A stretch of 64,000 bases of DNA, taken from positions 1 through 64,000 of the IMG/VR virus record IMGVR_UViG_3300032006_002703; one strand, written 5' to 3'. Every line of letters starts with the position of its first letter. Positions within the stretch are counted from its first letter, which is position 1. A program made the position numbers and the translations under genes. Below, one piece after another: positions 30,085-54,542 of this stretch. This DNA is from a virus. A model generated the notes under the pieces. It was not told the origin of the DNA, did no database searches, and saw nothing but the letters and a program-made list of their open reading frames with translations.

Positions 30085-31293
30085 ATGAATATTACACTAG
30101 AACGTACTCCAGAACAAGTAGAGCTTGTTAAGGCTTGCGCGTCCAAGAATCGTGACGTCGCATTTGAAGCTCAGGCAGTCTTGGCCGAATTTATCGGTCC
30201 AGTCTTGGCTGAAGTAATTAATACTGCTCCCACTGTTAGTAATCTATTCTCTTCCCTTCAGTTTAACTCTGAGGACAATCCTAGCATTCCGCTCGATCTC
30301 TATTACGATATCGACGATGAGGATTACGTCCAAATTTGGAGTCAACAAGTGCCAGGTGGCTTGCCTACCAACACTGTTGCTCCTTCACATAGTGAAGTGA
30401 AATTTACGACATACAACCTCGATAGCGCAGTATCCTTCAATAAGAGGTATGCCGCTCGATCAAGGCTTGACGTGGTTAGCAAAACGTTTACGCGAATTGC
30501 TCAAGAAATTCTCTTGAAGCAAGAGCAAACAGCTGCGAATATGATTTTCACAGCCCTTGCTAAGGCGACAACAAATAATACGAAACACGTTATTCGTTCC
30601 GCTCAACAAGGTCGATTCCTTTTGGCAGACTTGAACAAATTGTTCACGCTTGCCAAGCGAATCAACACCTCCTGGACGGGCGGTACACCTGAAAGTCGAC
30701 GTGGACGCGGTGTTACGGACCTTCTCGTCTCTCCTGAGATCGTTGAGGAAATCCGTGGTATGGCTTACAACCCGATTAATACCATCGGTTCTGACGGAAA
30801 GAAGCCAGCAGCTGGCGATTCCGCCAATATCCCTGGTACGGATTCAATGCGCGAAGCTGTATTCAACAGCGCGGGCATTCCTGAATTCTACGGTGTTTCC
30901 ATCATGGAATTCAACGAAATGGGTAGTCAAGACGCATTCGATACGTCCAAAGCGTACAGCGACGGATCCAATAACGAAAAATGGAACACGGTATTTGGGC
31001 AGATGGCAATGGATGCCAACAACCAAGGTATTAAATATCCTGATTTCTTCGTTAGCAAGGACCATAGCGGCGAGAAGAAGTTCTCCAAGGGCGAGCAAAT
31101 CGTTCTCGGTGTCGACCTCTCTCGCGATTCTATGATTCGTGCAGTTGCGGTTGATGCAGAGTCTGGCTCCGAGTTCAATCTCGTGGTCGACGATCAATTC
31201 GTTACCCGCCAAGCTAAGGTTGGCTATTATGGTTCACTCGACGAAGGTCGCGTGATCCTCGATGACCGTGTCCTCACGGGCATAATCGTTTAA
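30085..31293 (+). CDS. Major capsid protein
   Basis: 402 aa, strong SD AGGAG, synteny, followed by a terminator. Confidence 0.8.
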   Translation: MNITLERTPEQVELVKACASKNRDVAFEAQAVLAEFIGPVLAEVINTAPTVSNLFSSLQFNSEDNPSIPLDLYYDIDDEDYVQIWSQQVPGGLPTNTVAPSHSEVKFTTYNLDSAVSFNKRYAARSRLDVVSKTFTRIAQEILLKQEQTAANMIFTALAKATTNNTKHVIRSAQQGRFLLADLNKLFTLAKRINTSWTGGTPESRRGRGVTDLLVSPEIVEEIRGMAYNPINTIGSDGKKPAAGDSANIPGTDSMREAVFNSAGIPEFYGVSIMEFNEMGSQDAFDTSKAYSDGSNNEKWNTVFGQMAMDANNQGIKYPDFFVSKDHSGEKKFSKGEQIVLGVDLSRDSMIRAVAVDAESGSEFNLVVDDQFVTRQAKVGYYGSLDEGRVILDDRVLTGIIV

Positions 31294-32293: not shown

Positions 32294-32818
32294 ATGAAGG
32301 AATCCAATAAAGCAGAGTACCAGCAAGGCAAACTTCATAGGTCTGCGTTGTATAAGGCCTGTCAAGACGCCCAGACTTTATACGATCTAATTGGAGATGA
32401 CGATGTCCTCGAGGAATGGGTCGCGGAACAAATTAGGGTTTCTACTGAAACCTTGGAGACTGTTTTAAAGTATGTTGAATACGAAAAGGCTTTTCCTGCG
32501 ATTCCAGATTCCAGCCCAATTGCCGACGAAGAAGAGCAAAAAAATGAAAATAATTATCTCTCTAACGAAGATAAAAGGTATCCAACTCCCATGGAAGCGG
32601 AGAATGGGGACGGATTTATATCAAGGTGCATTGTCGACCCCAATATGAAAAACCGTTACCCTGAGCAGTCTGATAGATTTATGGCCTGCATGCTCATATG
32701 GAAAGAGGTCGGAAAGCCTGGTAGTGGAGAAGTTGATAACCCTGGGGAAAAATTTGAAGACCCTATGGAGGCTCCTCAGGAGGAAATTAAAGATCCTACA
32801 AAACCTGTTCTTCCTTAA
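32294..32818 (+). CDS. Hypothetical acidic protein
   Basis: GTGTA-N9-ATG upstream; FISRC...YP..RF.AC motif. Confidence 0.7.
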   Translation: MKESNKAEYQQGKLHRSALYKACQDAQTLYDLIGDDDVLEEWVAEQIRVSTETLETVLKYVEYEKAFPAIPDSSPIADEEEQKNENNYLSNEDKRYPTPMEAENGDGFISRCIVDPNMKNRYPEQSDRFMACMLIWKEVGKPGSGEVDNPGEKFEDPMEAPQEEIKDPTKPVLP

Positions 32819-35318
32819 TGGAATAACAAATCTCACCTTTTTTGTAGCTAAAGGTGATTGAGTGATCTATATCAAGCTCCTTAGATAAAAGCAGTTCTGA
32901 GAGCTTATTTTCTATTAAAGTTTGAATTGCTCTTTTAATCGGTCTCGCTCCAAGATCTTCCTGTTGGGCAACTTCAGCCAGATGACGAACAATCGAGGCA
33001 GTAAGTTTCATCTTTACCCCTTTCTTCCTTAGCTTATTTTTTAGATTTTTCATTTCAAGGTGAATGATTTTTCGAAAATCTTCATCACTAAACTTATGAA
33101 AGACGACTACCTCTGTCATTCTATTTACAAGCTCTGGCCTTAATAGTTTTTTTGCTTGATCTAGAATTTTATCTTTCATTTCTCCTTTGTTGTCATTATT
33201 TGTTGCTCCAAAGCCCATTGATAGTGATTTTTCAAAAAGATCTGAGCCAATATTTCCAGTAAGTATGATTACTGCGTTTTTGAACGAAGCTTCTCTGCCA
33301 AAATTATCAGTGAGCCTACCTTCTTCCAGAACTTGAAGCAAACTTTGCAGGACCTCTGGGTGCGCCTTGTCGATCTCATCAAATAAAACAACGCTATATG
33401 GCTGCCTGCTTATTCTTTCCGTTAGCTGTCCACCTTCTTCGTATCCCACGTATCCAGGTGCGGCGCCTATTAATTTCGAAGCAGAAACTTTATCGGAATA
33501 TTCGCTCATGTCTAGTTGGATAATTTTATGCTTCTCTCCAAAAAGAGATTTTGAGATTGATTTCGCCATATGGGTTTTGCCTGTTCCTGTCGGCCCCAAA
33601 CAAAGAAAACTTCCCATTGGTTTATTCTCTTCTCCTAGACCCGACCCAGACCTTAACATTGCTTGAACTACTGCATTTATTGCGTCGTCTTGCCCGATGA
33701 CCGTTTTTTTCAAAGATTTAGATAAGGTAAGGAGTCTTTGATTCTGCGTTTGAGATAATTGAGATACTGGTATCTTAACTTTTTGAGAAACAATTCTGTA
33801 TATATCTTCTTCCTTTACTGGACTAAATTTCTTGGAGCATCTGTGGCCCCACTTCGTCAATAGATTGGTATATTCTATTAAAACCTCTCTTTGCTGATTT
33901 TGAATATCTACTAAACTTTTTCCTATTTTACTCAGTTCTCGCTCTTCCTTTACTAGTTCCTCCAATTCCACTTCTAGCGCCTTTGCGCGTTTAGGCCTTT
34001 TGAAGCTGCGAATTTTTACTCGCGATCCTGCTTGATCAATAATATCTATAGCCTTATCTGGGAATCTTCTGTCATGAATATACTTTTTTGCTAAAGTTGT
34101 AACAAGTTCGAGTACTTCGTCTGAGTATTCTACCATATGAAATTCTTCATATTTTGCTTTAGTCCCCTTTAGTATTTCTAGGGTTTCTTCTTCGCTGGGC
34201 TCTTCAACGAAAACTGGCTGAAAGCGGCGATCAAGCGCCCCGTCCTTTGTGATGCTCTTTTTGTATTCGTCTTGTGTTGTTGCTCCAATGCAAATCAATT
34301 CGCCCCTAGATAGGGCTGGCTTAATCATATTTGCCGCATCCATGCTTCCCTCTGCACTTCCTGCGCCTATAATTGTATGAATTTCATCAACAAATAAAAT
34401 TATATGCTCTGAAGATTTTACTTCTTCAAGCGCCTGTTTTAAGCGTTCCTCAAACTGTCCACGATATTTTGTCCCTGCTATCATTGCCCCAAGGTCAAGG
34501 CTATAGATAACCTTGCCAAGAAGATGCTCTGGACAATTTCCGTCGGCTATATTTTGCGCAAGGCTTTCTATGATTGCGGTTTTGCCTACTCCTGCCTCGC
34601 CGAGAAGTATTGGATTGCTTTTATAGCGACGACATAAAATTTCACACAAATCCGCAACTTCACTGCTTCTTCCTACTATTTTATCAAATTTCCCAGCAAT
34701 CGCAAGATCATTGAAATTAGTTCCGTATTTTTCTAGGGCTCCGCTTTCTTTTTTTCTAGAGGGTCTAATTTGTGGTGGCGGCGGAGACCCAAAGATGCCA
34801 GGATCTTCATTGCCTTGCTCCTCCTCTGAGGACCAAGGGGAGTGAGGCATATTTTGGCTGAAGTCTTGAGATAATTGAAAATATTGCTGAATTTGTTCAA
34901 TGATAACATCTTGAGGGATGCCTAGCATTGCGAAATATTTATTGATTGGCGAGTCGTCATACTTTAGCATCGCGAGAAGTATGTGTTCTAATCCTACATA
35001 TTCATGATTAAACCTGTTGCTTAGGGTCATTGCTATTTGTAAAACATTTTTTATTCCTGCGCTATATTTAAACTTAGTTTTGCCGTCTATTGAATCTTTT
35101 CCTTTTTTTAGTCTTTTTTTGATTGCCCTCACAAAGGAATCAATATCAATCCCTAGGGATATAAGAAGCTCATGAGTTATCCCTGCATTTAAACTAAGTA
35201 TCCCAAGGAACAAATGCTCAAGAGTAACTGTTCTGTGGGATAGTTCTTTTGCCTGCTCCTTGGCTCGCTTAATAGCCCTTTGCGCTCGTGGTGTGAAGTT
35301 TGGCTTGCTGTCCATCAT
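32796..35318 (-). CDS. clpC: ClpC/ClpA-family AAA+ chaperone
   Basis: NFTPRAQ Clp-N repeats, GEAGVGKT and GPTGTGKT Walker A motifs, GAAPGYVGY. Confidence 0.93.
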
Positions 35319-42360: not shown

Positions 42361-43374
42361 ATGGATAATAAATCAGGAGAATTACTGTCGGAAGACATCG
42401 CGGGCGTAAATAGAATACTTCCACACAAACATAAATTTGCGTGGGATTTATTTTTGAAAAGTTGCGCCAATAACTGGATGCCAACCGAAATATCAATGCA
42501 AGACGATATTAATCAATGGAAAAATAATGAAATCACAGATGATGAAAAACTCCTCGTCAAGAGGTGCCTCGGCTTTTTTGCAGGAAGCGAGTCTTTGGTT
42601 GGCAATAACCTTTTGCTTTCTGCTTTCAGATTTATTACGGATGCTGAATGTCGTCAGTACATTTTGCGCCAAGCTTTTGAAGAAAGCCTTCATAACCTTA
42701 CCGTTGTATATATCTGCGACAGTTTGGACTTGGATGTCGAAGAGGTGTTTAACGCCTACGAAACTATACCTAGCATCAAAGCTAAGGACGATTTCCTCAT
42801 GGAAATTACCACGGATATTAGCAGGGAAGACTTTAAGCCAACCTCAAAGGAGGGCAAACAGGAAATTCTAAGAAATCTTCTTACATACTATATTGTATGT
42901 GAAGGTACTTTTTTCTTTAGCGGTTTTGCAATGCTTCTCGCTCTGGGTAGGCAGAATAAACTGCAAGGAGTTTCCGATCAAATCAAATATACCCTTAGAG
43001 ATGAAAGTAGTCATATTGCTTTTGGCACTTATTTGATTAATACTCTTATTGAACAGAACCCATCTATTTGGACTAAGTCCATTCAGTCTGAGTTTGTTGA
43101 GCATATTAAAAAAGCGGTTGATTTAGAAATTGCGTATGCTAAGGATGTTTTACCTACTGGTATTTTGGGTCTTAATGCTGATATGTTTATTGATTATATG
43201 CATTACATTGGTAATCGTAGGCTTGAGGCTATTGGCTTAGATTATCGTTTCCCTAGCGACAAAAACCCTTTTCCTTGGCTTGGTGAAGTCGTAGACGTAC
43301 AAGCTATGGGGAACTTCTTTGAGAGGCGAGTAAGGGAATATCAGCAAGGTGGGGCTCTTGAGGAAGATTTTTAA
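42361..43374 (+). CDS. nrdB: Ribonucleotide reductase beta subunit, R2c (class Ic)-like
   Basis: GSESLVGNN, EESLH, EGTFFFSGF, RDESSH; leaderless behind TTGACT-17-TATTAT. Confidence 0.93.
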   Translation: MDNKSGELLSEDIAGVNRILPHKHKFAWDLFLKSCANNWMPTEISMQDDINQWKNNEITDDEKLLVKRCLGFFAGSESLVGNNLLLSAFRFITDAECRQYILRQAFEESLHNLTVVYICDSLDLDVEEVFNAYETIPSIKAKDDFLMEITTDISREDFKPTSKEGKQEILRNLLTYYIVCEGTFFFSGFAMLLALGRQNKLQGVSDQIKYTLRDESSHIAFGTYLINTLIEQNPSIWTKSIQSEFVEHIKKAVDLEIAYAKDVLPTGILGLNADMFIDYMHYIGNRRLEAIGLDYRFPSDKNPFPWLGEVVDVQAMGNFFERRVREYQQGGALEEDF

Positions 43375-45329
43375 TCTATTTTATTATTGTATTTTCCATC
43401 AACAAGGCCTGCTCCATAAATGTTTAAGTTTAGGCCAACTCTTTTTGAGGCTTCAAAGATTAAATTTAAATAATACTGAGGGTCTCCCTCTGATTTTGCG
43501 TGATATTCGTCACTGAATACTATTCCATCTTTATTTTTTATATGATGTAAATTGTTGTCTCTGTAATACTTTTTAAGGTTCGCATTTTCTAGATAACCCT
43601 CTCCTCTCCAAGCGCATTCGACTAGTTCTTTGAAAGATTTTGCAAATGTTCGCCCTCTGTCCACTTGGAACATAATCCCACGGTAAAGCCCACCATAACC
43701 ATTAAGTGATCCTTTAAGCTTTCCTAGGTCAGTGCTATACGCATCTTGAGGATGCTTATTGAAGTTGGGTAAGTGATAGTCTGGTGCAGCTTCGTCTTGA
43801 AATGCTACAGCTAAAACATTATCCTTTTTCGCTGCCTCTGTAAAAAATTGAAGCGTTCTTTCTCCTGCATCATCTACTATAGTAACCCTTCTGTTGTATA
43901 AATTTTCATCATTATTGTAATATGGGAGGAGCGCCTGCTTTAAGAGAGTTTCCTTCATGATGTCCAATTGCCTTCTTGTTGCCAGGATGCTTCCGCTGCC
44001 ATCAACGTGAATCATTATATGTAAAGCTCCATCTTTAGGTAGGTGGTCATAATTATATTCTCTCCCGTGCCCATGGTGTCCATGGCAATTTGCCCCATGC
44101 TCTGCACAGCCGCCTTGCCCGATACCTAAGCCTAATTTTTCGGTAACCGTTCCTGTTACTAGCCCTGCAGCTCCACCAGCGCCAGCCCCGCTTGTTAATC
44201 CGCCCACCCCGCCAATTTGAGGAAGGTCAACATTCCCAGGATTTGAGGGGGTGCTTTCTTTATTTAGAGGATTAGAATAATTGGCGAGCTCTTCTCCATC
44301 GTTAATTCCATCCCCGTCCGTGTCTGCGCTATTTGGGTTTGTTCCTATCTGAGCCTCCGTCGAGGCTGGGAGCCCATCACCATCTCTATCGTTTTCTGGA
44401 GTAGCTTTAAGGTTTGCAGGCATAAGGGGAGAGGTTCCAACCCCTCCAAGAGTAGGAACAGCTTTTCCATTTAGTACTGCTTCTCCAACTCCCGCTCCAA
44501 TTCCCGCTCCGCCTCCAGCGCCAGCGCCAACCGCACCACTACCTATTCCTGCACCGACCCCTTGGCTTGGATAATTATAAGCGTATAAATCTCCCTTGCC
44601 AAGCCCATTTCCTTTTTTCTCTGCATCGTCATTATTTTTAAGACTTTCTAGGTCTAATTCAAAATCTGGCACATCGTCTTTTGCTAAAGTTAAATTCGTA
44701 AGAACTTCTTCATCTTCCGTATCGATCCCCACCTTGCTTTCTGCCAATCTGCGATCCAGGATCCCCTTATCAAAGTCTCTTTCTCTTATGGCTCTATCTA
44801 GAGCGCCGACATCAACAGTTCCAATGTCGTCATTATTTACTCCAATATGATTCCTAACGTCCCTATTGTAAATTCCGTCATTTCGACGACCAACAACATC
44901 GGAACCTCCTCCTATTCCACCAATACTATGACCTATCACATCTCTGTCATCAATTATTACATCATCTCTATCGCGAATGACAACATGATCCGTATTGTCG
45001 ACCACTGCAATATGCGGGTTTCTTTCTCCGTCTCTTAAAACAATTACATCTGGATCATCGTCTAAAACTATTCCGTCAAGCCTATCTGGACCCACGTCAT
45101 AGTCCCGAACGGTATTTACATTCCTATCGACATAAACAATTTCCTTTTCTGGCTTTTCCTCGTCTTTATAAACTTCGTGAAAAAGATTTTCTCCATCTTC
45201 TATTACGTCTGCCGTAACGACATGTTCTGTCGATCTGTTTAGAAAAACCAATAAAATAAACATAAGCATCATAAAATACCCAGTAAATAGATTGGCCAGT
45301 GATAGTTTTTTTAGTTTTTTATTATTCAT
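43371..45329 (-). CDS. Membrane-anchored protein with Asp-rich, Gly-rich and TSP3-like Ca-binding repeats and a vWA-like domain
   Basis: N-terminal TM; DRDGDGL / DTDGDGINDGEE; HVDGSGS MIDAS-like motif. Confidence 0.65.
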   Translation of the reverse strand: MNNKKLKKLSLANLFTGYFMMLMFILLVFLNRSTEHVVTADVIEDGENLFHEVYKDEEKPEKEIVYVDRNVNTVRDYDVGPDRLDGIVLDDDPDVIVLRDGERNPHIAVVDNTDHVVIRDRDDVIIDDRDVIGHSIGGIGGGSDVVGRRNDGIYNRDVRNHIGVNNDDIGTVDVGALDRAIRERDFDKGILDRRLAESKVGIDTEDEEVLTNLTLAKDDVPDFELDLESLKNNDDAEKKGNGLGKGDLYAYNYPSQGVGAGIGSGAVGAGAGGGAGIGAGVGEAVLNGKAVPTLGGVGTSPLMPANLKATPENDRDGDGLPASTEAQIGTNPNSADTDGDGINDGEELANYSNPLNKESTPSNPGNVDLPQIGGVGGLTSGAGAGGAAGLVTGTVTEKLGLGIGQGGCAEHGANCHGHHGHGREYNYDHLPKDGALHIMIHVDGSGSILATRRQLDIMKETLLKQALLPYYNNDENLYNRRVTIVDDAGERTLQFFTEAAKKDNVLAVAFQDEAAPDYHLPNFNKHPQDAYSTDLGKLKGSLNGYGGLYRGIMFQVDRGRTFAKSFKELVECAWRGEGYLENANLKKYYRDNNLHHIKNKDGIVFSDEYHAKSEGDPQYYLNLIFEASKRVGLNLNIYGAGLVDGKYNNKID

Positions 45330-45645
45330 GTCTTGTAATCTTTGAGACCTTAAAGCCTGCGTTCTCTACGGCCTTATGTATCTCTTTGTCTGTTAAGGTT
45401 TTTCCTTTAATTAAATAAATATGAGCCGTTTCTTTTTTTATATCGAACGCGACCTTGTATACTTTTTTTGTTTTATTTAAATGCTTCTTGATTCCTATTG
45501 CACAAGATGGGCATACAAGTCCCTTTATTTTTGCATCTATAATTTCAGCGGAGCTAGAATTTAAAATAAGCAGGGAGCAGGCTGCGAGCATTAGCGTTTT
45601 ATTTACGCCCCTGTATTTCCTTTGTCTAATTCCCATAGATACCAA
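45322..45645 (-). CDS. Secreted heavy-metal-associated (HMA) domain protein; true start probably further downstream
   Basis: Signal peptide; GLVCPSC...AVENAGF. Confidence 0.8.
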   Translation of the reverse strand: MVSMGIRQRKYRGVNKTLMLAACSLLILNSSSAEIIDAKIKGLVCPSCAIGIKKHLNKTKKVYKVAFDIKKETAHIYLIKGKTLTDKEIHKAVENAGFKVSKITRHE

Positions 45646-45667
45646 TAATAATCATCCAGCGGATCCA

Positions 45668-46204
45668 TTATTCCCTTCTGTCTTTAGTTTGGACGCGGTT
45701 TCTAACCTCTCTCGCAAGCTCCTTTTTTGCCGCTTTGATTTGCTCGTGTCTTTCTTTTTGAGATTCTTTAAACGATTTAATTAAATCTGCAACCTCTTCT
45801 TTGTTTTTATTTTTTAAATTTTCTTGCAAAACTTTTCTTGCAAGATGGAGCTCATTCTGCAAAAGTTTCATTGCGTTTACTTTTATTTTAATCTCTTCAA
45901 TAGGCTCGGGGCGAGGTCGAGGTTTTCTTCCTTCTTTGTCTGCTTTTATGTTTTCTGCAATCCATTTCGCTAAAGTGCTACTGCCCATTCCAAAACCTCC
46001 TGGTAAGGGTCTGTAGTCTCTTACTTGTAATGCTGGAGGTTTTCCCCAATGTGGAGGAAATGGCTTCCGCTTATTTTCGGATAATTTGGGTTTAACTTTT
46101 TCTATTTCTTTTGTTTGGGGCGGGTTTGGTTTTGACCTTTCTTTTTCGCCGAAAGAAAATCCTGCGACCAGCAGGGTAATTATAATTAAATTTATTGTTT
46201 TCAT
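45668..46204 (-). CDS. Secreted hypothetical protein (FPPHWGxPP motif)
   Basis: Signal peptide; GTGTA-N10-ATG upstream. Confidence 0.7.
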   Translation of the reverse strand: MKTINLIIITLLVAGFSFGEKERSKPNPPQTKEIEKVKPKLSENKRKPFPPHWGKPPALQVRDYRPLPGGFGMGSSTLAKWIAENIKADKEGRKPRPRPEPIEEIKIKVNAMKLLQNELHLARKVLQENLKNKNKEEVADLIKSFKESQKERHEQIKAAKKELAREVRNRVQTKDRRE

Positions 46205-46235
46205 TAAATAATGATACACAAATTAACAAATAAAG

Positions 46236-47519
46236 TCAAGTGGTTAGTTCTTTTAAAACTCTGCCTTGATTTAATATTGGATGTGGCCTTCCGCTGTGAT
46301 CGTAATATTGATGTTTTGGATTAACTCCCATATGGTCATATATCGTCGTTAAAACATCTGGAGGGGTTATGCCTGTTACAGGTTCCGACCCAGTCTTATC
46401 GCTTTCTCCTGCGACCCTGCCCCCTTTTACTTTTCCGCCTGCTATTGCTGCCGCCATTGACCTGGACCAATGGTCGCGACCTCCATTGGCGTTAATTTTT
46501 GGGGTGCGGCCAAATTCTCCCCACGCCACAACCATAACATCATCCATCATTCCTCTTGAATGAAGGTCAATAATTAGTGCGCTAAATGCCTTGTCAAATT
46601 GAGGTAAATTTCTCTCTCCCATGCTTTTGTCGCTAGCCTGATGGGTGTCCCATCCAAATGGAGTTTTTACGGTCACCATTTTTACGCCACCTTCTACTAG
46701 CCTTCTGGCTAAAAGAAGATCTCTGCCAAAACCTTCTCCGTATAACTCTTTTGTGAATGTTGATTCTTTTTCAATATCGAATGCATTTGCGGCTTTGCCG
46801 CTGGTTAGCAATCCTTGAGCCTTACTGTTAAATTCATCTATCGAATCTACCATTCCAGATTTGTCTAGTATACTTCTAAAGCTATCAAATTCTTTTAATA
46901 GATTCTTTCTATTGTCAACAATGTCCACAGTTAAAGATTGATCTAAAGTAAAATTTGTATCTCTATACGGAATAGTGCTAGAGGGCCTGGTCTTTGTTTC
47001 ATAGGGTCCAAACTCATGCGGTAAATATCCAGGTCTAGTGCCGTTGTTATGATTGGGCACTACGACATATGGCGGAACTTCTGCCCCTTTTGAAGCGTGC
47101 TCTGATATTGTAGAACCTATACTTGGATAGAAATTCTGTTGTTGATTGGGGACGGGGGCCTTATATCCAGAATGCATAATCTCGTGCGCAGAACTATGAT
47201 TATTATTGTCGTGATAAAGGCCTTTTATGATTGACCATTTATCCATGCAGTCTGCGCATTTGGCTAAATGTTCGGGCAATTGAATTCCGTCTACCGTGGT
47301 GGGTATAGCCTCAAAATGCCCTTTGAACGGTTGAGGGGCGTAAGGTTTTGGATCAAAGGTTTCATGATGTGAAGGACCTCCGTTCATCCAGACTACTATA
47401 ACTGATTTATTTTTATGTAGACCCGTGCGTTTTTGAGAAGCAAGTAATTGAGGTAATGTCAAATTGTTGGCCCCGAGCATTGCCCCGCTTACTATAAAAG
47501 ATCTGCGAGATAATTTCAT
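46236..47519 (-). CDS. DUF1501-family protein with Tat signal
   Basis: SRRSFI; WMNGGPSHHETFDPKP, LLARRLVE.GV, WDTH, GEFGRTP, GRDHW. Confidence 0.9.
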   Translation of the reverse strand: MKLSRRSFIVSGAMLGANNLTLPQLLASQKRTGLHKNKSVIVVWMNGGPSHHETFDPKPYAPQPFKGHFEAIPTTVDGIQLPEHLAKCADCMDKWSIIKGLYHDNNNHSSAHEIMHSGYKAPVPNQQQNFYPSIGSTISEHASKGAEVPPYVVVPNHNNGTRPGYLPHEFGPYETKTRPSSTIPYRDTNFTLDQSLTVDIVDNRKNLLKEFDSFRSILDKSGMVDSIDEFNSKAQGLLTSGKAANAFDIEKESTFTKELYGEGFGRDLLLARRLVEGGVKMVTVKTPFGWDTHQASDKSMGERNLPQFDKAFSALIIDLHSRGMMDDVMVVAWGEFGRTPKINANGGRDHWSRSMAAAIAGGKVKGGRVAGESDKTGSEPVTGITPPDVLTTIYDHMGVNPKHQYYDHSGRPHPILNQGRVLKELTT

Positions 47520-47534
47520 GCCTTATATATACAC

Positions 47535-47801
47535 TTATTCTTCTTCTTTTTCTGGGAGACTCTCTTTCCATCTCGGCGGATTCAATGGGCATCTGGTTGT
47601 TCCCATTAGCAATTTTGCGCTTGAGCATCCACACGCCCTACATCTCGCAAGAGTGCTATTTCCTAACTCTTGCCACCATTTGCAATCCCTACATAATTCC
47701 AGTCGCTCGTTTAAAACTTCCTTGGTAACCACAGGGTAACCTTGTGATTTCCATTTTTTGAGCGCATTACTTAAATTTTTTGCGAGATCAATAAACTTCA
47801 T
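47535..47801 (-). CDS. Small Cys-rich protein (DUF6171-like)
   Basis: RLELCRDC...CRACGC...CP...W. Confidence 0.6.
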   Translation of the reverse strand: MKFIDLAKNLSNALKKWKSQGYPVVTKEVLNERLELCRDCKWWQELGNSTLARCRACGCSSAKLLMGTTRCPLNPPRWKESLPEKEEE

Positions 47802-47841
47802 TACATAATAATAAAAAACTTGCGAAAGATTTAAATTTTTT

Positions 47842-48438
47842 TTAAAGATCTCCTGCAGCATTCATAATTGCTCCTGCATCTATTCCTTGAAACGGACCAA
47901 GCGGCTGCTTATTTGTTTCTATTTTATCCAGCACTGGAGAGCCTGAGTGCAAAACATATACTACGGTATCATCAACCAATATTATTAGCGCAGAAAAACT
48001 CCAGCCCGTGCTATGGGTAACTTGCTTAAAAGATAACATGTCTTTCCAAAAGCTTCCAATTCTTTTTTTACTGGTTTGTGATATTACTAATTCATAAGCT
48101 TTGCATTTTTCATGCTGATTTAGTGCGTCCTCTATCCCTGGGGGTAATTTAATACTATTGAAAAGGGTACTATCCAGCTTAAATCGCTCCATCACATCTA
48201 AGTAGGTAAGTGTTTTTAGGTTTGGGGTTGACTTGAAGTCAATGCCTAATTTCCTCAGATCTTCTCTTGTAGTTTTATTTGGAATGATTTTATTTATAAC
48301 TTGCTCCATTTGGTTATAGGAGCTCCAGGGAATTGTTGTTCCCTCTTGAGCACTCGGCAAAAGAGTTTTGCAGCTAGATAGAAGTAATACCCCTAGGGCC
48401 ACCAAGATAGAGGTTAGCTTATTGCTTTGCCTTAACAT
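47842..48438 (-). CDS. Lipoprotein
   Basis: LSSC lipobox. Confidence 0.7.
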   Translation of the reverse strand: MLRQSNKLTSILVALGVLLLSSCKTLLPSAQEGTTIPWSSYNQMEQVINKIIPNKTTREDLRKLGIDFKSTPNLKTLTYLDVMERFKLDSTLFNSIKLPPGIEDALNQHEKCKAYELVISQTSKKRIGSFWKDMLSFKQVTHSTGWSFSALIILVDDTVVYVLHSGSPVLDKIETNKQPLGPFQGIDAGAIMNAAGDL

Positions 48439-48697
48439 TTTTAACGCCTGTATTTTTTAGCAATTGTGCGCCCATTCTTATTTTAGTTGTACTATTCAAT
48501 TCCCAAAATCCTACTTTAGGTAAATATTTATCCATGTATTCACAAAGCTCCTTTCGACTCATGTCTTGAAGCTCTTGATCTATTGGGAGTCCCAAAATAT
48601 TATCTTTTTCTTTGTTTGGATATTCTCTAAATTTTTCAACAAAAATATAGAGAGTGCCAACCGAATAGAGTAACCATTTTATTATTAATTGAAACAT
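48419..48697 (-). CDS. Hypothetical protein with N-terminal hydrophobic segment
   Basis: ORF in operon. Confidence 0.6.
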   Translation of the reverse strand: MFQLIIKWLLYSVGTLYIFVEKFREYPNKEKDNILGLPIDQELQDMSRKELCEYMDKYLPKVGFWELNSTTKIRMGAQLLKNTGVKNVKAKQ

Positions 48698-48698
48698 A

Positions 48699-49046
48699 TC
48701 ATCCTTTCTTTATTTTTCTTTTGGCCTTAACGTAAGGCTTCATTAGGTAATGTTTGATGAATCCTCCAATCATTTGCTTTCCTAGTCTTTTTCTTATTTT
48801 ATTTTCATACCTCGTCATTGGGCAATCAATAACCCTGGAGAATGTAATGACTCCTATAAAAGTACAAAGCGGCAAGCATACATACCACGGTGGATTTTGT
48901 GAGGGAGAAAATCCATTATATACTAAAATAAAGAACGCTCCAAAATTACCAAAAACAACTAACCAATGGAGTACTACTACAAGCATCAATTTCAGGCTGT
49001 CTGTTTCTGGCAGAAACCCAAAACGGCGGTTTTTGTTCATCAACAT
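48699..49046 (-). CDS. Membrane protein, DUF2784-like
   Basis: LH in the first TM, CPMTxYENxxR; GTGTA-N9-ATG upstream. Confidence 0.6.
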   Translation of the reverse strand: MLMNKNRRFGFLPETDSLKLMLVVVLHWLVVFGNFGAFFILVYNGFSPSQNPPWYVCLPLCTFIGVITFSRVIDCPMTRYENKIRKRLGKQMIGGFIKHYLMKPYVKAKRKIKKG

Positions 49047-49054
49047 GTATTGTA

Positions 49055-50872
49055 TTACACAATACTCTCTAAAAATTCATGTTCCCCATTTAGGATTTCT
49101 TTTGCTAGCGCATAGTTTTTCTTGTCGTTATTTTTTGATATCGCTTTAAATTTTTCCTCTATTTTTATTTTTGAATTTTTAAATACGCAATCCGCTAGCT
49201 TTCTTGCTTCTTTTGTGTTAATCGATTGAGCTCTCGACGAAGAGGCGGCGATAACAAATAATTCTGCACCGATTTCTGCCAGTCTCCCAAGAAGTAGCTG
49301 CTGTTTATCTAGTGCGGGTCCGTATCTTACCATTGAATGAAAAAGCTTTCTCGCAAGCTTTTTGCTAGTTTTTGAAACATACTTTAATTGACCTTTTAAG
49401 GCGGGATCCATACCATTTGGTATTCTATGAGAAAAAGGGAGCCACTGCTTTGGGTACCATTTTGCATAAAACCATGCCGCTTTAATTGCTGCGACCATTC
49501 TTGTTTTCATTGGCAGTCTACTGTCTAAAACTGCACCTGCTGCCTTGAGGTGGGGATCTAATGCTTCTCTTGCAAGGATGAGTCGCATTATTTCGCTTGA
49601 CCCTTCAAAAATAAGGTTAATTCTTAAATCTCTAAACATTCTCTCTACTGCAGGGTTAAGTTGCCCTCTGTTTTTTAAAGACTGCGCGGTTTCGTAGCCT
49701 CTTCCGCCTCTAATTTGCATTGTTTCGTCGATCATTTTCCAGGCGGTTTCTGTTCCCCACATTTTTGCTATAGCAGATTCAACTCTAATATCGTGATTTT
49801 TATTGTCTGCCATTTGTGCGGTTAATAGTACCATGGATTCCATAGCAAACGTATTTGCAGCAAGGTGAGCTAACTTATCTGCAATTGCGGAATGTTTTCC
49901 TATTACACAGCCCCACTGTGATCTGGTAGACGTCCACTGTCTGCAAACCTTAAGCATCCATTTTGTTGCGCCAACACATATGGCGGGGAGGGTCAATCTT
50001 CCAATATTTAAAGTTCCCAAGGCAACTTTCATCCCCCTCCCTTCTCCTAGTATAATATTTTCTTTAGGGACGTAAACTTCATCAAATTTTACAACTCCAT
50101 TGTATAACGCCTTAAGCCCCATGAACCTGCATCGATTAACTATACTTACTCCTGGCATATCCATGTCTACAATAAAAGCTGTAATTTGCTTTTTTCCATT
50201 TTTGTCTGGGGTTCTAGCCATTACTATGATGTGTTCCGCTTTTAATCCATTGGTGCACCAAAGCTTTTCTCCATTTAATACAAAATGACTTTTGTCTTCT
50301 GAGAGCTTTGCTTCTGTGATCATTTTGGAGGGGTCAGAACCTACTCCATCTTCCGTTAAAGCAAAAGCGCTTACCGCACCATTGCTGAATTTTGGTAAAT
50401 ATTTTTCTTTTTGCTCTTCTGTTCCGTACATCAAAAGGGGTTGGGGCACGCCTATTGATTGATGCGCGGACAGTAGGGCAGATATATTTCCGCACTCCGA
50501 GCCGCAGACCATTGCAGCCTTTGAGTAATTTGTTTGAGATAAACCTCTTCCTCCGTATTCTTTTGGGATCTTGATTGCAAAGGCTCCAATTTTTGCCAGC
50601 TCTTTAAATACCTCATCGGGAATTTCCCCATTTTCATCTATGGCGTCAGGGTCTACGTATTCGGTAAAAACATTTTTTAAATCCGAAGTGAAGTCTTCTC
50701 CCATTTTTGATTGGTGTTCGTTTTGCTGGGGAAATGGAAATATATCGTTAAAGTTTATATTTCCACTATATAATCCACCTGCAAACGTTTTATTTAAATC
50801 CTCTCTCCCTGCTTCCGCAGCCTCAAGTGCGGCAGCTTTATCTTTCGACATTTTTGATGTATCTATTGACAT
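49055..50872 (-). CDS. fadE: Acyl-CoA dehydrogenase (VLCAD/ACAD9-like)
   Basis: FALTEDGVGSD, NGEKLWCTNG, GGRGY, RINLIFEGSSEI. Confidence 0.93.
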   Translation of the reverse strand: MSIDTSKMSKDKAAALEAAEAGREDLNKTFAGGLYSGNINFNDIFPFPQQNEHQSKMGEDFTSDLKNVFTEYVDPDAIDENGEIPDEVFKELAKIGAFAIKIPKEYGGRGLSQTNYSKAAMVCGSECGNISALLSAHQSIGVPQPLLMYGTEEQKEKYLPKFSNGAVSAFALTEDGVGSDPSKMITEAKLSEDKSHFVLNGEKLWCTNGLKAEHIIVMARTPDKNGKKQITAFIVDMDMPGVSIVNRCRFMGLKALYNGVVKFDEVYVPKENIILGEGRGMKVALGTLNIGRLTLPAICVGATKWMLKVCRQWTSTRSQWGCVIGKHSAIADKLAHLAANTFAMESMVLLTAQMADNKNHDIRVESAIAKMWGTETAWKMIDETMQIRGGRGYETAQSLKNRGQLNPAVERMFRDLRINLIFEGSSEIMRLILAREALDPHLKAAGAVLDSRLPMKTRMVAAIKAAWFYAKWYPKQWLPFSHRIPNGMDPALKGQLKYVSKTSKKLARKLFHSMVRYGPALDKQQLLLGRLAEIGAELFVIAASSSRAQSINTKEARKLADCVFKNSKIKIEEKFKAISKNNDKKNYALAKEILNGEHEFLESIV

Positions 50873-50873
50873 A

Positions 50874-52850
50874 TTAGTGTGGTCCTGAAAATTTACTATA
50901 CTCTATGGGGCCACCCTTAAAGGGTGCCCAACCTGTTCCCATGATCATTGCAAAATCGATATCGTCTGTAGTTTTTGCAACCTTTTCTTGTATGCATTTC
51001 TGCGCTTCTTGAGTCATTGACTCTACCATCTTGCTTTCTATGTCGCACAATATGGGGTTGTCTTTTTGCATTTTTAAAAATACTGGGTTTGGACAGACAG
51101 CTTCCCTCCCTTTATACAGGAAGAATCCTTTTCCGCTTTTTCTTCCAAATTGTTTTGTTTCTAGGATTTTATGAATTATTTGAGGGACCTTAAAATCATC
51201 TAGCCTTTTTTCTAAATCAAGCGCTACATGAGCTGCAACATCGAGACCTATTTCATCAAGCAGTCTTAGCGGACCCATAGGCATGCCAAAATCTAACATA
51301 CAGTTCTCTATGGAGGTTAGCGGGTGCCCGTCCGAAAATAATCTTAAAGCTTCAACAAGATAGGGTAATAGGATTCTGTTAACCAAAAAGCCTGGACTAT
51401 CCTTAACCACTACTGGAAGCTTTCCTATTGAGATTACAAATCTTTTTGCTCTATCTTCTGTCTCTGCGCTAGTTTTCTCTCCAACAACAATCTCAACCAA
51501 TTTCATCTTATGTACGGGATTAAAAAAATGAATTCCCACAAAGTTTTCTGGTCTTTTAAGTCCTTTTGCAAGTTCGGTTATTGACAGCGCAGAAGTGTTT
51601 GTCGCGAGAATTGCATCTTCTGCTAGCCCGCTCTCTATTTCCTGCAGGACCTTTGTTTTTAATTCGAAATTTTCTACAACAGCCTCTATCGCTAGACTTT
51701 GCTTACTAAGGGGTACAGAGTTTTTTGTGAAGTTCAGTTTTCCCAAACAATCTCTAACTGTGGGCCTATCTATTTTATGCTTAAGTACCGCAGAAACAAA
51801 AAGTTTGCCTATTTTTTTGAGACCAGATGCTATTGCGCTCTCAGAAACATCCTTTAATAAAACTCTTTTTCCTCTAGAGGATATCCATTGGGCAATCCCT
51901 GCGCCCATTGTTCCTGCGCCAATAACGACAATATCATCATCTATTTGTTTATCAAGTTTCGGGTCATACCATGGCATTCCATGGGGAAGCTTTTTCGCTC
52001 TTTCTTGCAGAAAGAATACTCTTATTAAATTTCTACAAGCCTTAGTTTTTGCGAGAGAAAGGAACCCTTTCTTTTCTAGCTTGAGTGCTGCGTACTTATT
52101 TTTAAAAAAACTTTTTGCCACAACTTCAATTATTTTATTGGGTGCAGGGTAGTTTCCTCTAGTCTTTTTATAAACACTTTTCTTTGATAGAAAAATTGAA
52201 ATCGGCAATAGTATGGCTTGTGTTAATTTATTGACTTTTCTTTTTGGTTTTTTGGAACCACACAAGCTAACGGCCTCTTTAAAAAGATTTTCCTTGTGGC
52301 ACATCTTATCCACCATTCCTAATTTAAGCGCTTGAATTGGGGCATAGATTTTACCAGAAAGCAATGCCTGTAGGGATTTTGGTAAACCAATTATTCTTGG
52401 CAACCTAGTTGTTCCTCCCCATGCGGGTAATATCCCAAGCATAACCTCTGGGAGCCCTAGTTTTGTGCATTTTTCATTGGATGCAATTCTGTATTTACAT
52501 GCAAGAGACAATTCTAATCCCCCACCGAGGCAGGCGCCATTGATTGCGGCCACGGTAGGTATACTTAACCTTTCTATTCTATTAAAACTCTCTTGTCCGT
52601 AGCGCAAAACTCCACGAAGCCACTTTTCGTTTGTTAAATTATCTTTCATGGATAGAAGATCCGCTCCTGCAAGATAAATCGAGGGTTTCTTGCTGACGAA
52701 AATAAGACCTTTAATATCTTTATTTCCTTCGACCTCCTCCAGGATTTCATTCAATCTAATAAAAAAATCCATATTTAAGATATTTGCTTTAGAGTTTGGT
52801 TGATCAAACTCTGCTACTGCAATTCCGTCTGTTATATTAAAATTAATCAT
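50874..52850 (-). CDS. fadJ: Fatty-acid oxidation complex alpha (enoyl-CoA hydratase / 3-hydroxyacyl-CoA dehydrogenase)
   Basis: AGADL, GGGLEL, GLPEV, GAGTMG, EAVVE, HFFNPV, PGFLVNR. Confidence 0.93.
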   Translation of the reverse strand: MINFNITDGIAVAEFDQPNSKANILNMDFFIRLNEILEEVEGNKDIKGLIFVSKKPSIYLAGADLLSMKDNLTNEKWLRGVLRYGQESFNRIERLSIPTVAAINGACLGGGLELSLACKYRIASNEKCTKLGLPEVMLGILPAWGGTTRLPRIIGLPKSLQALLSGKIYAPIQALKLGMVDKMCHKENLFKEAVSLCGSKKPKRKVNKLTQAILLPISIFLSKKSVYKKTRGNYPAPNKIIEVVAKSFFKNKYAALKLEKKGFLSLAKTKACRNLIRVFFLQERAKKLPHGMPWYDPKLDKQIDDDIVVIGAGTMGAGIAQWISSRGKRVLLKDVSESAIASGLKKIGKLFVSAVLKHKIDRPTVRDCLGKLNFTKNSVPLSKQSLAIEAVVENFELKTKVLQEIESGLAEDAILATNTSALSITELAKGLKRPENFVGIHFFNPVHKMKLVEIVVGEKTSAETEDRAKRFVISIGKLPVVVKDSPGFLVNRILLPYLVEALRLFSDGHPLTSIENCMLDFGMPMGPLRLLDEIGLDVAAHVALDLEKRLDDFKVPQIIHKILETKQFGRKSGKGFFLYKGREAVCPNPVFLKMQKDNPILCDIESKMVESMTQEAQKCIQEKVAKTTDDIDFAMIMGTGWAPFKGGPIEYSKFSGPH

Positions 52851-54103
52851 TCGCACGTCTCAATTTCTATAGCGGACCCCTGGCCTCCGCCAACACAGAG
52901 CGAGGCGAGTCCTTTTTTTAGACCCCTTCTTTTTAACTCTTTAGCTAAAGTAAGAATGATTCTTGCTCCAGAAGCTCCAACAGGATGTCCTAGCGCTATC
53001 GCTCCTCCATTAACGTTAAATTTCTCATCTGGAATTTCGCCAATATCGTTTTCGATTACTTTCTTGCATGCAAGTGTCTGTGCGGCAAACGCTTCATTTA
53101 TTTCTATCAAATCCATGTCTTTAAGGTTGACTCCAAGTTTCTTGATTGCAAACACTGGGCCAAGGCCCATTCTTTTTGGGTCGCAGCCAACATGAGTGTA
53201 ATTGTTTATTTTTGCAATAGGTTTTTTTCCTGTTTTATTTAATCCTTCTTCAGTCATTAACAGCAAGGCAACTGCTCCGTCTGTTACTTGAGAAGAATTA
53301 CCTGCGGTTACCGTTCCTTCTCTTTTGTCAAAAATAGCGCGAAGCCTGTTGAGTTTTTCTGTCGTCGTATCTTCCCTGATTCCATTGTCTTTAGTGATAA
53401 CTTCGCCGCTGGGAGAGTTAATGCAATCATCGTTTGAAATGTATATTGGTGATATTTCATCCGCTTGAATAAGACTGGTTGCCATGGAGGCTTTCCCGTG
53501 AGAAAGAAAGGAAAAAATGTCCTGCTCTTTTCTGCTGATTTCATATTCTCTCGCTAAAATTTCTGCAGTCTGCCCCATATTAATTCCAGACAGGGGATCG
53601 TGCAGGCCCATGCGTAAACTAATTTTTGGAGCTAAATCACTTAATCTAAATTTTAAGATTGCTTTTAATTTCTCTTTTTTTGTTTTTGCCCCGAAGAGAG
53701 AAAATATCTTTTTAGACGTTGATCTTGAAAAAAGCAGGGGCATTTGAGACATGCTTTCCGTTCCTCCTGCAAGGAATATATGGCCTTCATTAGCCTTTGC
53801 TTTTGCCGAGGCACACGTTACTGCTTCGAATCCAGAGGCGCAATTTCTATGAACGGTTACTGCTGGTATATTTTTGGGCAAACCAAGTCTTGTTCCAATA
53901 ATCCTAGAAACATTCATTTCGTCAGCGGGCTGCCCAACGCAACCGAATATAACTTCATCTATCAAACCTAGGTCTATGTCTACTTCAGATAGGACTCCTT
54001 TACTCGCTGCAATCCCTAATGCAGACGCAGATTCCTCTGCAAGAGAGGTTCCCATCTTGCAAAACGGGGTTCTTTTTCCCTCTACAATATATAAGTCAGA
54101 CAT
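52847..54103 (-). CDS. fadI: 3-ketoacyl-CoA thiolase
   Basis: RTPF, RNCASG, EINEAFA, GHPVGASG, LCVGGGQG. Confidence 0.93.
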   Translation of the reverse strand: MSDLYIVEGKRTPFCKMGTSLAEESASALGIAASKGVLSEVDIDLGLIDEVIFGCVGQPADEMNVSRIIGTRLGLPKNIPAVTVHRNCASGFEAVTCASAKAKANEGHIFLAGGTESMSQMPLLFSRSTSKKIFSLFGAKTKKEKLKAILKFRLSDLAPKISLRMGLHDPLSGINMGQTAEILAREYEISRKEQDIFSFLSHGKASMATSLIQADEISPIYISNDDCINSPSGEVITKDNGIREDTTTEKLNRLRAIFDKREGTVTAGNSSQVTDGAVALLLMTEEGLNKTGKKPIAKINNYTHVGCDPKRMGLGPVFAIKKLGVNLKDMDLIEINEAFAAQTLACKKVIENDIGEIPDEKFNVNGGAIALGHPVGASGARIILTLAKELKRRGLKKGLASLCVGGGQGSAIEIETCE

Positions 54104-54137
54104 CGGCACAGTATATAGTAAATAATCTGTGAGAAAA

Positions 54138-54542
54138 TTACATTTTCCTTAGCATTAATATTGTTTTTCTTAGGTCTGGGTCTATAGGTTCTGGCAATTT
54201 ATCTATCGAAAAATAATCCCAGTCGTTATGCTCGTAGCCATCTGGAGCACAGACTAGGTTGGGCCTGATTCTTTTAGCGATAGGATAAAGATAGCAAAAG
54301 AAATGTCTATTGTTTGTTATGCGAAATTTATTAACGAAGGTTAGTGCGTATCTAGTTTTAATGAGAGTTTCTTCATACAGTTCTCTTTCTGCAGCCTTCC
54401 AGATCGGCTCTCCAGTTTCTACCATTCCGCATGGGACGCTCCAGTAGCCTTCTAGTTCTGTCCCCTTTATGCATCTTTTAAGCAATAAAACATCATTCTT
54501 GCATTTTAACAAAACTCCTGCGACCTTAAGAGAGGAAGTCAT
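54138..54542 (-). CDS. NUDIX hydrolase
   Basis: GMVETGE...AAERELYEET Nudix box. Confidence 0.88.
   Translation of the reverse strand: MTSSLKVAGVLLKCKNDVLLLKRCIKGTELEGYWSVPCGMVETGEPIWKAAERELYEETLIKTRYALTFVNKFRITNNRHFFCYLYPIAKRIRPNLVCAPDGYEHNDWDYFSIDKLPEPIDPDLRKTILMLRKM

Follow-up and report, generated by a model that had tools for sequence, protein, structure and literature searches.

The genome of an uncultured marine tailed phage, deposited in IMG/VR as a 107-kb virus record (about 76% complete; G000 below), carries three contiguous genes on its minus strand, in the order thiolase, FadJ/FadB-type protein and acyl-CoA dehydrogenase (ACAD). All three appear intact, and from their domains and catalytic residues they are predicted together to account for all four core reactions of fatty-acid beta-oxidation, as the initial annotation had proposed. 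We consider it rather probable that this trio is a genuine auxiliary metabolic cassette, namely a captured operon of Verrucomicrobiota type that the phage has carried for a long time and that is proposed to increase flux during replication. Coordinates refer to the first 64,000 nucleotides of the record, which we call the window. The trio and its neighbours are as follows.

54138..54542, minus strand: NUDIX hydrolase (Pfam NUDIX 1e-16, phrog_1198), the last gene of a conserved replication block and the upstream boundary
52847..54103, minus strand: 3-ketoacyl-CoA thiolase, 418 aa from ATG 54103 (420 aa from an alternative GTG 54109)
50874..52850, minus strand: FadJ/FadB-type multifunctional enoyl-CoA hydratase / 3-hydroxyacyl-CoA dehydrogenase, 658 aa from ATG 52850
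49055..50872, minus strand: long acyl-CoA dehydrogenase of VLCAD/ACAD9 type, 605 aa
48699..49046, minus strand: small DUF2784 protein (Pfam PF10861 2e-09), with hydrophobic stretches and likely a membrane protein as judged by eye
47535..48697, minus strand: three small ORFs (p92, p198 and Cys-rich p108), which complete the inserted segment
46236..47519, minus strand: DUF1501 protein (Pfam DUF1501 1e-89), the downstream boundary of the cassette

Three enzymes of the beta-oxidation spiral

The minus-strand open reading frames of the trio extend over 52847-54109, 50874-52856 and 49055-50872, and the ORF calls and the junction sequences both agree with the compact arrangement noticed at first reading: the TGA of the thiolase gene overlaps the ATG of the FadJ-type gene at 52850 (ATGA), and a single nucleotide separates the FadJ stop from the ACAD ATG at 50872. 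For the thiolase, ATG 54103 is preferred over GTG 54109, because the alignment with PDB entries begins at the ATG and the GTG gives just two extra residues. This protein matches Thiolase_N (2e-61) and Thiolase_C (1e-43) of Pfam over its full length, belongs to the superfamily described by TIGR01930 (acetyl-CoA C-acyltransferase; 407.6 bits at a cut-off of 240.55), and finds thiolases including FadI (8bnu_A, 3e-62) in the PDB. The FadJ-like protein has the full-length architecture of a FadJ/FadB alpha subunit (ECH_1, 3HCDH_N and 3HCDH), and its best PDB match is the alpha subunit of the E. coli anaerobic trifunctional enzyme, TFE (8bnu_C/6ysv_A, E 7e-119, residues 9-654). The ACAD combines the core domains Acyl-CoA_dh_N/M/1 with the C-terminal ACAD9-ACADV_C domain (PF21343, 34.6 bits vs 27.8), as long dehydrogenases of VLCAD/ACAD9 type do, and residues 22-549 are aligned with ACAD9 (8phe, 5e-85) and VLCAD (7s7g, 1e-74).

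The catalytic motifs had been judged intact by inspection, and every expected residue was indeed located. They are C90/N338/H375/C405 in the thiolase; the two hydratase glutamates E115/E137, the GxGxxG motif at 313-318 and S422/H443/E455/N493, with the dehydrogenase His and Glu, in the FadJ-like protein; and E423 within the FEGS motif of the ACAD. When invariance was checked over 14-32 phage-clade homologues, depending on the protein, the thiolase set was invariant across 16 sequences and E115/E137/H443/E455 in 32 sequences, and E423 was likewise invariant.

The initial names fadI, fadJ and fadE claim too close a match, since all three proteins fall below the NCBIfam equivalog cut-offs. The thiolase reaches 310 bits vs 560 for NF006516 and 253 vs 711 for TIGR02446, so it is not a FadI equivalog; the FadJ-like protein reaches 543 bits vs 869 for FadJ (NF008363) and 517 vs 870 for FadB (NF008727). 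From its domains and residues the latter would work like FadJ, yet it is no equivalog. The ACAD is VLCAD/ACAD9-like; it is not of the E. coli FadE type (FadE_coli model, 108.6 bits at a cut-off of 1300), and it also stays below the cut-off for Bacillus FadE (272 bits vs 600).

A cassette within a phage genome

Is this operon really phage DNA? Genes for TerL, DNA polymerase, RNR, DnaB, primase, UvsX and PhoH are found on the two sides of the trio, with replication genes upstream and RNR, polymerase and TerL downstream, and the trio is at least 49 kb away from either contig end; such a position, flanked by viral genes and away from the ends, is expected of a phage auxiliary metabolic gene. On one side of the trio are the primase-exonuclease-NUDIX genes, and on the other is the DNA-polymerase module. 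Annotation confirms the earlier placement directly downstream of the former, after a gap of 34 nt on the same strand in which no terminator-like site was found. PHROGs and Pfam gave no match for most structural genes of the contig; the ESM Atlas clusters nearest to a capsid-like protein are Uroviricota capsid clusters, and a single-sequence AlphaFold model of this candidate has a pLDDT of 34. Relatives whose TerL is 74% identical are 86-100% complete and 122-211 kb in length, and the contig belongs to a large family of ~120-130-kb phages. These flanking genes, the status of the contig as a virus record and the synteny described below bear out the initial view that the trio resides on a real phage genome.

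The AT-rich style that had been ascribed to the trio is also seen in numbers. Its GC3 is 0.32-0.34, vs a genome mean of 0.36 (sd 0.04), and its RSCU correlation 0.80-0.87, vs a median of 0.78, whereas cellular homologues have 50-67% GC; base composition is even over 47-55 kb. Thus, it is difficult to imagine host fad DNA that was joined to phage DNA through mis-assembly or binning, an explanation that we regard as largely refuted and hardly probable at all. Two points can still be raised in its favor. IMG/VR and INPHARED both contain mislabelled cellular DNA, all FadB matches in INPHARED being bacterial contigs, and the upstream junction, between NUDIX and thiolase genes, is known from this single assembly because the contig of the diverged relative G001 begins inside fadJ. 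However, G001, which is syntenic with G000 over ~35 genes, retains the ACAD (80% identity) and the end of FadJ at the same place, which makes a chimera unlikely; there the order ACAD-DUF2784-p92-p198 is followed by shared phage genes, and two further loci (L033 and L036) have the same order. A FadJ protein of 658 aa with 98% identity is also present in a separate ENA assembly. From tree position and low GC we infer a phage context for the closest FadJ homologues (P0001-P0010, 52-98% identity). Conservation in relatives (G001, L033 and L036), purifying selection and viral composition, as expected of a phage auxiliary metabolic gene, are all found for this cassette.

Origin and selection

The initial annotation had suggested a phylogeny with Verrucomicrobia homologues and a dN/dS analysis as checks, and the link to Verrucomicrobia holds. 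Among named cellular homologues, those closest to the trio come from Verrucomicrobiota MAGs and share its gene order. Operons of this type (L126-L128 and many metagenome contigs of 50-67% GC) resemble the phage trio in genes and order, and with identities of 50-54%, 43-48% and 54-61% they are its nearest cellular relatives; unlike the phage loci, they are high in GC and have no adjoining DUF2784 gene. Phage copies of the trio form deep clades of their own. In the ACAD and thiolase trees both phage clades are joined and adjoin the Verrucomicrobiota-type operons, while in the FadJ tree alone clade A is placed outside clade B plus cellular sequences; a single clade of A and B was not rejected by the AU test (p 0.354). 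It is to be noted that the trees come from quick LG+G4 searches throughout and that base composition differs sharply between phage and cellular rows. The cassette suggests Verrucomicrobiota or other PVC bacteria as likely hosts of the phage, and Opitutales or other Verrucomicrobiota are expected.

A dN/dS of 0.07-0.15 in lineage B indicates purifying selection, and between G000 and G001 the dN of the ACAD is 0.13, below those of TerL (0.22) and DNA polymerase (0.23).

The insertion slot

The cassette occupies a slot of ~6.6 kb from NUDIX to DUF1501. Relatives L288 and L302 have DUF1501, 84% identical, directly after NUDIX; Opitutales, Verrucomicrobiales and Planctomycetes provide the nearest named cellular homologues of DUF1501 (44-45%). 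The cassette is absent in three relatives that are at least 90% complete, which means that it is dispensable, and it was found in none of 95 related loci carrying the replication genes of G000. Thus, the cassette is accessory to the phage. One might then suppose that a hypervariable hotspot has taken it up as a passenger, beneficial to the host in a lysogenic or carrier state or nearly neutral, with no role in lytic growth. These absences, and the variability among relatives of the slot from NUDIX to the polymerase module, are in accord with such a passenger, yet we find it quite improbable: no tyrosine integrase was found on the contig, the phage encodes its own polymerase, RNR and helicase, purifying selection is strong, composition is fully ameliorated, and the ACAD is better conserved between G000 and G001 than TerL or polymerase.

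The rest of the inserted segment is made up of small genes. A GTGTA box (49056-49060) is located 9 nt upstream of the DUF2784 ATG and overlaps the ACAD stop. p92 and p198 are kept downstream of the ACAD in G001, L033 and L036; p198 has a lipoprotein-like signal as judged by eye, and neither PHROGs nor Pfam gave a family for p92, p198 or p108.

How could the cassette work in infected cells?

Acyl-CoA ligase (PF00501) and ETF (PF01012), which the initial annotation had not seen in the window, are absent from the whole 107-kb contig, while control genomes gave matches. The contig likewise has no patatin lipase, isocitrate lyase or integrase, and no glyoxylate-shunt gene is present. The phage set is thus not a complete pathway including acyl-CoA synthetase and ETF/ETF-QO, and without ligase, ETF, lipase and glyoxylate-shunt gene the cassette must depend on host enzymes, as had been presumed.

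Our preferred scenario is as follows. Thiolase, FadJ and ACAD genes would have been captured as a ready-made operon from a Verrucomicrobiota-type bacterium, placed in the variable slot between replication genes and the DNA-polymerase module, and carried long enough to acquire phage base composition; they may share a transcript with the replication genes upstream of them. Acyl-CoA would be oxidized to enoyl-CoA by the VLCAD-like ACAD, with electrons going to host ETF and ETF:quinone oxidoreductase. The FadJ-like protein would hydrate and oxidize the enoyl product to yield NADH, and the thiolase would release acetyl-CoA. Probably, the latter two form a complex like the trifunctional enzyme; such an enzyme is an alpha2beta2 or larger, membrane-associated assembly, of which the DNA reveals only translational coupling via the ATGA overlap. 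The host would contribute release of fatty acids, their activation (FadD), ETF and respiration, and as a net effect more host lipid would be channelled into acetyl-CoA and reducing power during phage replication. In a virocell study, host proteins for fatty-acid degradation were more abundant in infected cells at low phosphate (PMC11170926). Judging from its gene content, the phage can probably oxidize host-activated fatty acids during infection; its use of host membrane or storage lipid as an energy source we can only infer.

The enzymes might also be active for a purpose other than bulk energy supply, such as clearing free fatty acids or acyl-CoA from envelope remodelling, providing acetyl-CoA for sugar-modification genes, or handling other CoA thioesters. 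The cassette is accompanied by membrane or exported proteins (DUF2784, lipoprotein-like p198, DUF1501, HMA and TSP3), the genome has many sugar-modification genes (nucleotide-sugar epimerase, glycosyltransferases and sulfotransferase), and substrate range and chain-length preference of the ACAD are not readable from its sequence. However, a VLCAD-type ACAD, a FadJ-type protein and a thiolase are the standard set for long-chain beta-oxidation in the cellular sister operons, and the sugar genes are at least 35 kb away from the trio with no direct link to it, so that we hold such other purposes to be unlikely.

Other phage lineages with the trio

The trio had been called unusual for a tailed phage. 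No paper describing a contiguous beta-oxidation trio in a phage was found by literature search, and to this extent the statement stands; it does not stand for IMG/VR, in which several phage lineages carry the trio. These homologues needed an alignment scan, because single-protein scans of IMG/VR gave no match with the thiolase and distant ACADs only with the ACAD. At the DNA level nothing in the INPHARED phage collection matched, and its protein matches, all mislabelled bacterial contigs, were rejected as phage homologues. Cellular proteins at 42-52% identity dominated the matches listed in a metagenome scan.

An unrelated marine myovirus lineage (lineage B; IMG/VR contigs L005-L010, records G002-G006) shares the trio and DUF2784 with G000, as well as nrdA, nrdB and a trypsin-like gene at 56-65% identity. 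Lineage B is a different phage, with a major head protein (phrog_138), a tail sheath and UvsX; it has no match to TerL or polymerase of G000, and its trio is flanked by Ldh_2 and serine dehydratase. In lineages A and B, 13 distinct phage-type records (19 locus hits) have a DUF2784 homologue (45-70% identity) next to the trio, and the high-GC cellular loci have none. Since its link to the trio is confined to phage-type contigs, DUF2784 could act as an adaptor specific to phages, which could anchor the VLCAD-like ACAD or a TFE complex at the membrane or couple it to the host electron chain. Two further T4-like lineages have FadJ of other cellular origins. Together with the trio-DUF2784 module, they may mean that marine phages capture beta-oxidation repeatedly. 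As a whole, the idea of a four-gene module with such an adaptor moving between unrelated marine phages, and of repeated capture, is speculative and rather doubtful at present.

Comparison with known systems

A metabolic gene in a phage usually encodes a single bottleneck enzyme. The operon described here is predicted to cover a catabolic spiral in all its core steps, and purifying selection keeps it in two or more unrelated lineages of marine phages. If the enzymes are active, conversion of lipid to acetyl-CoA, NADH and reduced flavin in infected cells would come under phage control, and carbon and energy would have to be budgeted differently in models of marine virocells. In a large, uncharacterized phage family, the cassette also marks a variable slot for insertions.

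Fatty-acid oxidation for energy by marine viruses has been proposed from fadB and fadL gene families in viromes (Hurwitz et al., 2013; PMC4053976), and also in a study that lists fadJ as an auxiliary metabolic gene (PMC12013262). The former deals with virome families and read abundances and the latter with assembled phage sequences; both have single genes only, without a contiguous three-gene core, and ACAD and thiolase are not mentioned. Because the cassette consists of defined genes for expression and assay, it makes the idea from virome read counts in 2013 directly testable.

Among characterized enzymes, E. coli FadJ/FadI (6YSV, 8BNU) and mitochondrial TFE (6DV2, 5ZQZ) have the same thiolase-first order as the phage trio. 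The whole phage FadJ-like protein aligns with them and keeps the hydratase and dehydrogenase residues, and the thiolase matches FadI and HADHB, whereas identity is ~35% and the scores do not reach the cut-offs set by NCBIfam for FadJ and FadI equivalogs. The phage protein has 658 aa vs 710 aa in the E. coli chain, with an alignment that ends at E. coli residue 666, and many FadJ homologues have a longer C-terminus than the phage protein. VLCAD and ACAD9 (7S7G, 3B96, 8PHE) share the ACAD core, the C-terminal domain PF21343 and the FEGS Glu with the phage ACAD; their solved structures, unlike the phage enzyme, are eukaryotic. As for viruses, the giant Prymnesium kappa virus RF01 also encodes an acyl-CoA dehydrogenase and lipid-catabolism genes, but it is a eukaryotic virus. 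Enoyl-CoA hydratase and ketothiolase are unknown from any giant virus according to a review (PMC9270025), whereas the phage genome described here encodes both.

Three enzyme genes in the phage genome

Three minus-strand open reading frames occupy window positions 49055-54109:

Thiolase, minus strand, ATG 54103: full-length Pfam Thiolase_N and Thiolase_C; catalytic residues C90, N338, H375 and C405, all present
FadJ-like hydratase/dehydrogenase, minus strand, ATG 52850, 658 aa: full-length Pfam ECH_1, 3HCDH_N and 3HCDH; hydratase residues E115 and E137, both present; dehydrogenase GxGxxG at 313-318 and residues S422, H443, E455 and N493, all present
Acyl-CoA dehydrogenase (ACAD), minus strand, ATG 50872: full-length Pfam Acyl-CoA_dh_N/M/1 and the ACAD9/ACADV C-terminal domain; catalytic residue E423, present

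ATG 54103 is most likely the thiolase start, because PDB alignments start there and GTG 54109 gives just two more residues. As the initial annotation had read them, the junctions are an ATGA, in which the thiolase TGA overlaps the ATG of FadJ (658 aa from this start, the same length as its closest homologue), and a gap of one base between the FadJ stop and the ACAD ATG. The three genes are predicted to be translationally coupled. The catalytic motifs, already described as intact, are not only complete but invariant across 14-32 phage-clade homologues.

What should these proteins be called? The best solved relative of the FadJ-like protein is the alpha subunit of the E. coli anaerobic trifunctional enzyme (8bnu/6ysv, E 7e-119), those of ACAD are ACAD9 (8phe) and VLCAD (7s7g), and those of the thiolase are general degradative and biosynthetic thiolases, FadI and HADHB among them. 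Judged by sequence, the proteins should work like FadI, FadJ/FadB and FadE, and ACAD is VLCAD-like rather than E. coli FadE-like. The names fadI, fadJ and fadE first given to the genes should not be kept, however, since none of the three proteins reaches the NCBIfam equivalog cut-offs for FadI, FadJ/FadB and FadE.

The genes lie in G000, a single IMG/VR virus record of 107,410 bp, linear, with a CheckV completeness of 76% and no terminal repeat; its first 64 kb form the window. Upstream on the same strand are UvsX/RecA, DnaB, primase, a PD-(D/E)XK exonuclease and NUDIX, the last three as previously noted, and downstream an accessory block leads to nrdB/nrdA, DNA polymerase, a ClpB-like protein and the large terminase (TerL). 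G000 also carries PhoH, tail-fibre-like and virion-protein-like genes; for a 402-aa protein (30085-31293), the nearest neighbours in the ESM Atlas are Uroviricota capsid clusters. No tyrosine integrase was found in G000. DnaB alone matched 171 related IMG/VR stretches (identity 60-67% among the matches listed), in which the order UvsX, p134, p92b, DnaB, primase, exonuclease, NUDIX (in some) and polymerase module is kept, and relatives with a 74%-identical TerL are 122-211 kb long and 86-100% complete. Thus, G000 belongs to a large family of uncultured phages, mostly of about 120-130 kb. Two neighbouring tRNA-Ser genes (anticodons GCT and GGA, 7192-7372) adjoin the PhoH-like gene. The ClpB/ATP-dependent-protease-like gene (840 aa, 32796-35318; phrog_4871, 7e-240) adjoins the DNA polymerase and is kept throughout the family at 33-52% identity. 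The capsid candidate and the gene at 63921-64883 of the contig differ strongly from the rest of the genome in codon usage (RSCU correlation about -0.05 and -0.11), for which very high expression or recent transfer is possible.

Authenticity and insertion site

Could the trio be host DNA joined to the phage by mis-assembly, the case named at the outset as a refutation? The NUDIX/thiolase junction itself was seen solely in the G000 contig. G001 (IMGVR_UViG_3300046532_004458, 48 kb), a diverged relative with about 35 syntenic genes (identity to G000: TerL 70%, polymerase 69%, nrdB 87%), begins within fadJ and continues with ACAD (80%), DUF2784 and the small ORFs p92 and p198 in the same order. 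On two contigs from marine metagenomes, L033 and L036, these small genes likewise come after the trio, and a separate ENA assembly encodes a FadJ 98% identical to that of G000. Cellular homologues of the trio lie on DNA of 50-67% GC. In G000, the phage-like composition noticed initially is borne out: the trio has a GC3 of 0.32-0.34, where the genome averages 0.36 (sd 0.04), the correlation of its codon usage with that of the genome pool is 0.80-0.87 (median 0.78), and base composition is even over the region. From the gene order in relatives, the independent FadJ and this composition, a chimera at the trio is very unlikely.

The trio seems to be an addition to a conserved locus. None of 95 related loci carrying G000's replication genes has even one of the three, and G012, G014 and G016, each at least 90% complete, gave no match in the FadJ or the ACAD search, the latter matching both positive controls (G003 and G005). 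In the nearest trio-free relatives, L288 and L302, DUF1501 (84% identical to that of G000) directly follows NUDIX. Therefore, about 6.6 kb (47520-54137), comprising the trio, DUF2784, p92, p198 and p108, is extra in G000. Relatives carry different genes in the interval from exonuclease/NUDIX to the polymerase module, which therefore looks like an accessory-gene hotspot. Next to the cassette, several proteins that are probably exported or located in the membrane are encoded together at 43371-47519: DUF1501, an HMA (CxxC) domain protein (45322-45645), the Lys-rich p183 and a 652-aa protein with TSP3 repeats, which is 69% identical in L288/L302. Among named cellular proteins, the nearest homologues of DUF1501 belong to Opitutales, Verrucomicrobiales and Planctomycetes, which hints weakly at a host from the PVC group.

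Other phage lineages and origin

FadJ-like genes were found on 28 IMG/VR contigs by a profile scan. In marine lineage B (L005-L010) the genes run in the order nrdA, trypsin-like, nrdB, DUF2784, Ldh_2, thiolase, FadJ, ACAD and serine dehydratase. One record of it has a major head protein (phrog_138, 7e-76), tail sheath and UvsX, and no match to the TerL and polymerase of G000; lineage B is a myovirus, a different phage from G000. Its metabolic island is larger than that of G000, with the trio flanked by Ldh_2 (malate/L-lactate dehydrogenase family, 8e-103; L010:7299-8429) and a full serine dehydratase (L010:13899-15251), after which L010 has a DNA methylase, a SAP-domain protein and a NusG-like protein. 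In G003, of IMG/VR class provirus, nrdA and the trypsin-like gene (L007:1053-4535) match G000 proteins only as several separate pieces, pointing to frameshifts, an intron or intein, or errors of assembly. Lineages C and D, other phage contigs with FadJ-like genes, each include one record with a T4-type Gp23 capsid gene, and in the FadJ tree they join different cellular groups. Adjacency of DUF2784 and the trio is confined to low-GC, phage-type contigs. Some INPHARED "phage" records of 220-380 kb with fadB, fadJ and paa genes (e.g. CAKLQH020000005.1, 'Acinetobacter phage MD-2021a') look like bacterial chromosome contigs, and protein matches there need a check of context.

In quick LG+G4 searches, lineage B and clade A, to which G000 belongs, form one clade for ACAD (SH-aLRT 99) and thiolase (support 94). 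The FadJ tree places clade A outside lineage B and cellular sequences, while a single A+B clade is not rejected by the AU test (p 0.354). The comparison with Verrucomicrobia proposed earlier gave a cellular sister group with the same three-gene order, Verrucomicrobiota MAGs among its members. The simplest reading is that a Verrucomicrobiota-type operon was captured once, long ago, and then spread from phage to phage, the T4-like lineages having captured theirs independently; this is provisional because of compositional bias and the simple tree model. The dN/dS ratio, also suggested as a check, is 0.07-0.15 for all three genes in lineage B (dS 0.4-1.2, unsaturated). Between G000 and G001, where dS is saturated, dN of ACAD is 0.13, under TerL (0.22) and polymerase (0.23).

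A possible role during infection

A gap of 34 nt separates the NUDIX stop from the start of the thiolase, which is read from the same strand. It holds no terminator-like site and has just weak promoter-like sites around it, so that the trio is probably co-transcribed with the replication genes. Within 49044-49060, a GTGTA box (49056-49060) lies exactly 9 nt upstream of the DUF2784 ATG, overlapping the ACAD stop (GTGTAA), and is absent before the thiolase.

ACAD would carry out step 1, requiring ETF and ETF:quinone oxidoreductase, the FadJ-like protein steps 2 and 3, and the thiolase step 4. The lack of an acyl-CoA ligase and ETF, first noted for the window, extends to the whole 107,410-bp contig, in which no AMP-binding ligase, ETF, patatin lipase or isocitrate lyase was found; the host would therefore have to supply substrate release, activation and electron removal. 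The expected outcome would be conversion of host lipid into more acetyl-CoA, NADH and reduced flavin, a working mechanism that we infer as a whole from the encoded proteins. Proteomics of phage-infected Pseudoalteromonas under low phosphate found host fatty-acid transport and degradation proteins increased (PMC11170926), and by analogy a benefit of the cassette is plausible.

Comparison with earlier reports

Hurwitz et al. (2013) found families of fadB and fadL genes in viromes from the Pacific and suggested that fatty-acid oxidation supplies energy (PMC4053976), and a 2025 study lists fadJ as a phage AMG in polyhydroxyalkanoate cultures (PMC12013262). A 2024 ocean AMG catalogue includes fatty-acid biosynthesis and fatty-acid metabolism pathways, with no mention of beta-oxidation or the trio genes, and according to a 2022 review neither enoyl-CoA hydratase nor ketothiolase had been found in any giant virus (PMC9270025). 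A full-text literature search found no published description of a phage in which thiolase, FadJ and ACAD genes are contiguous. What is new here is that the cassette is a defined insertion, missing from relatives at least 90% complete, that it is linked to DUF2784, and that it is carried by another, unrelated phage family.
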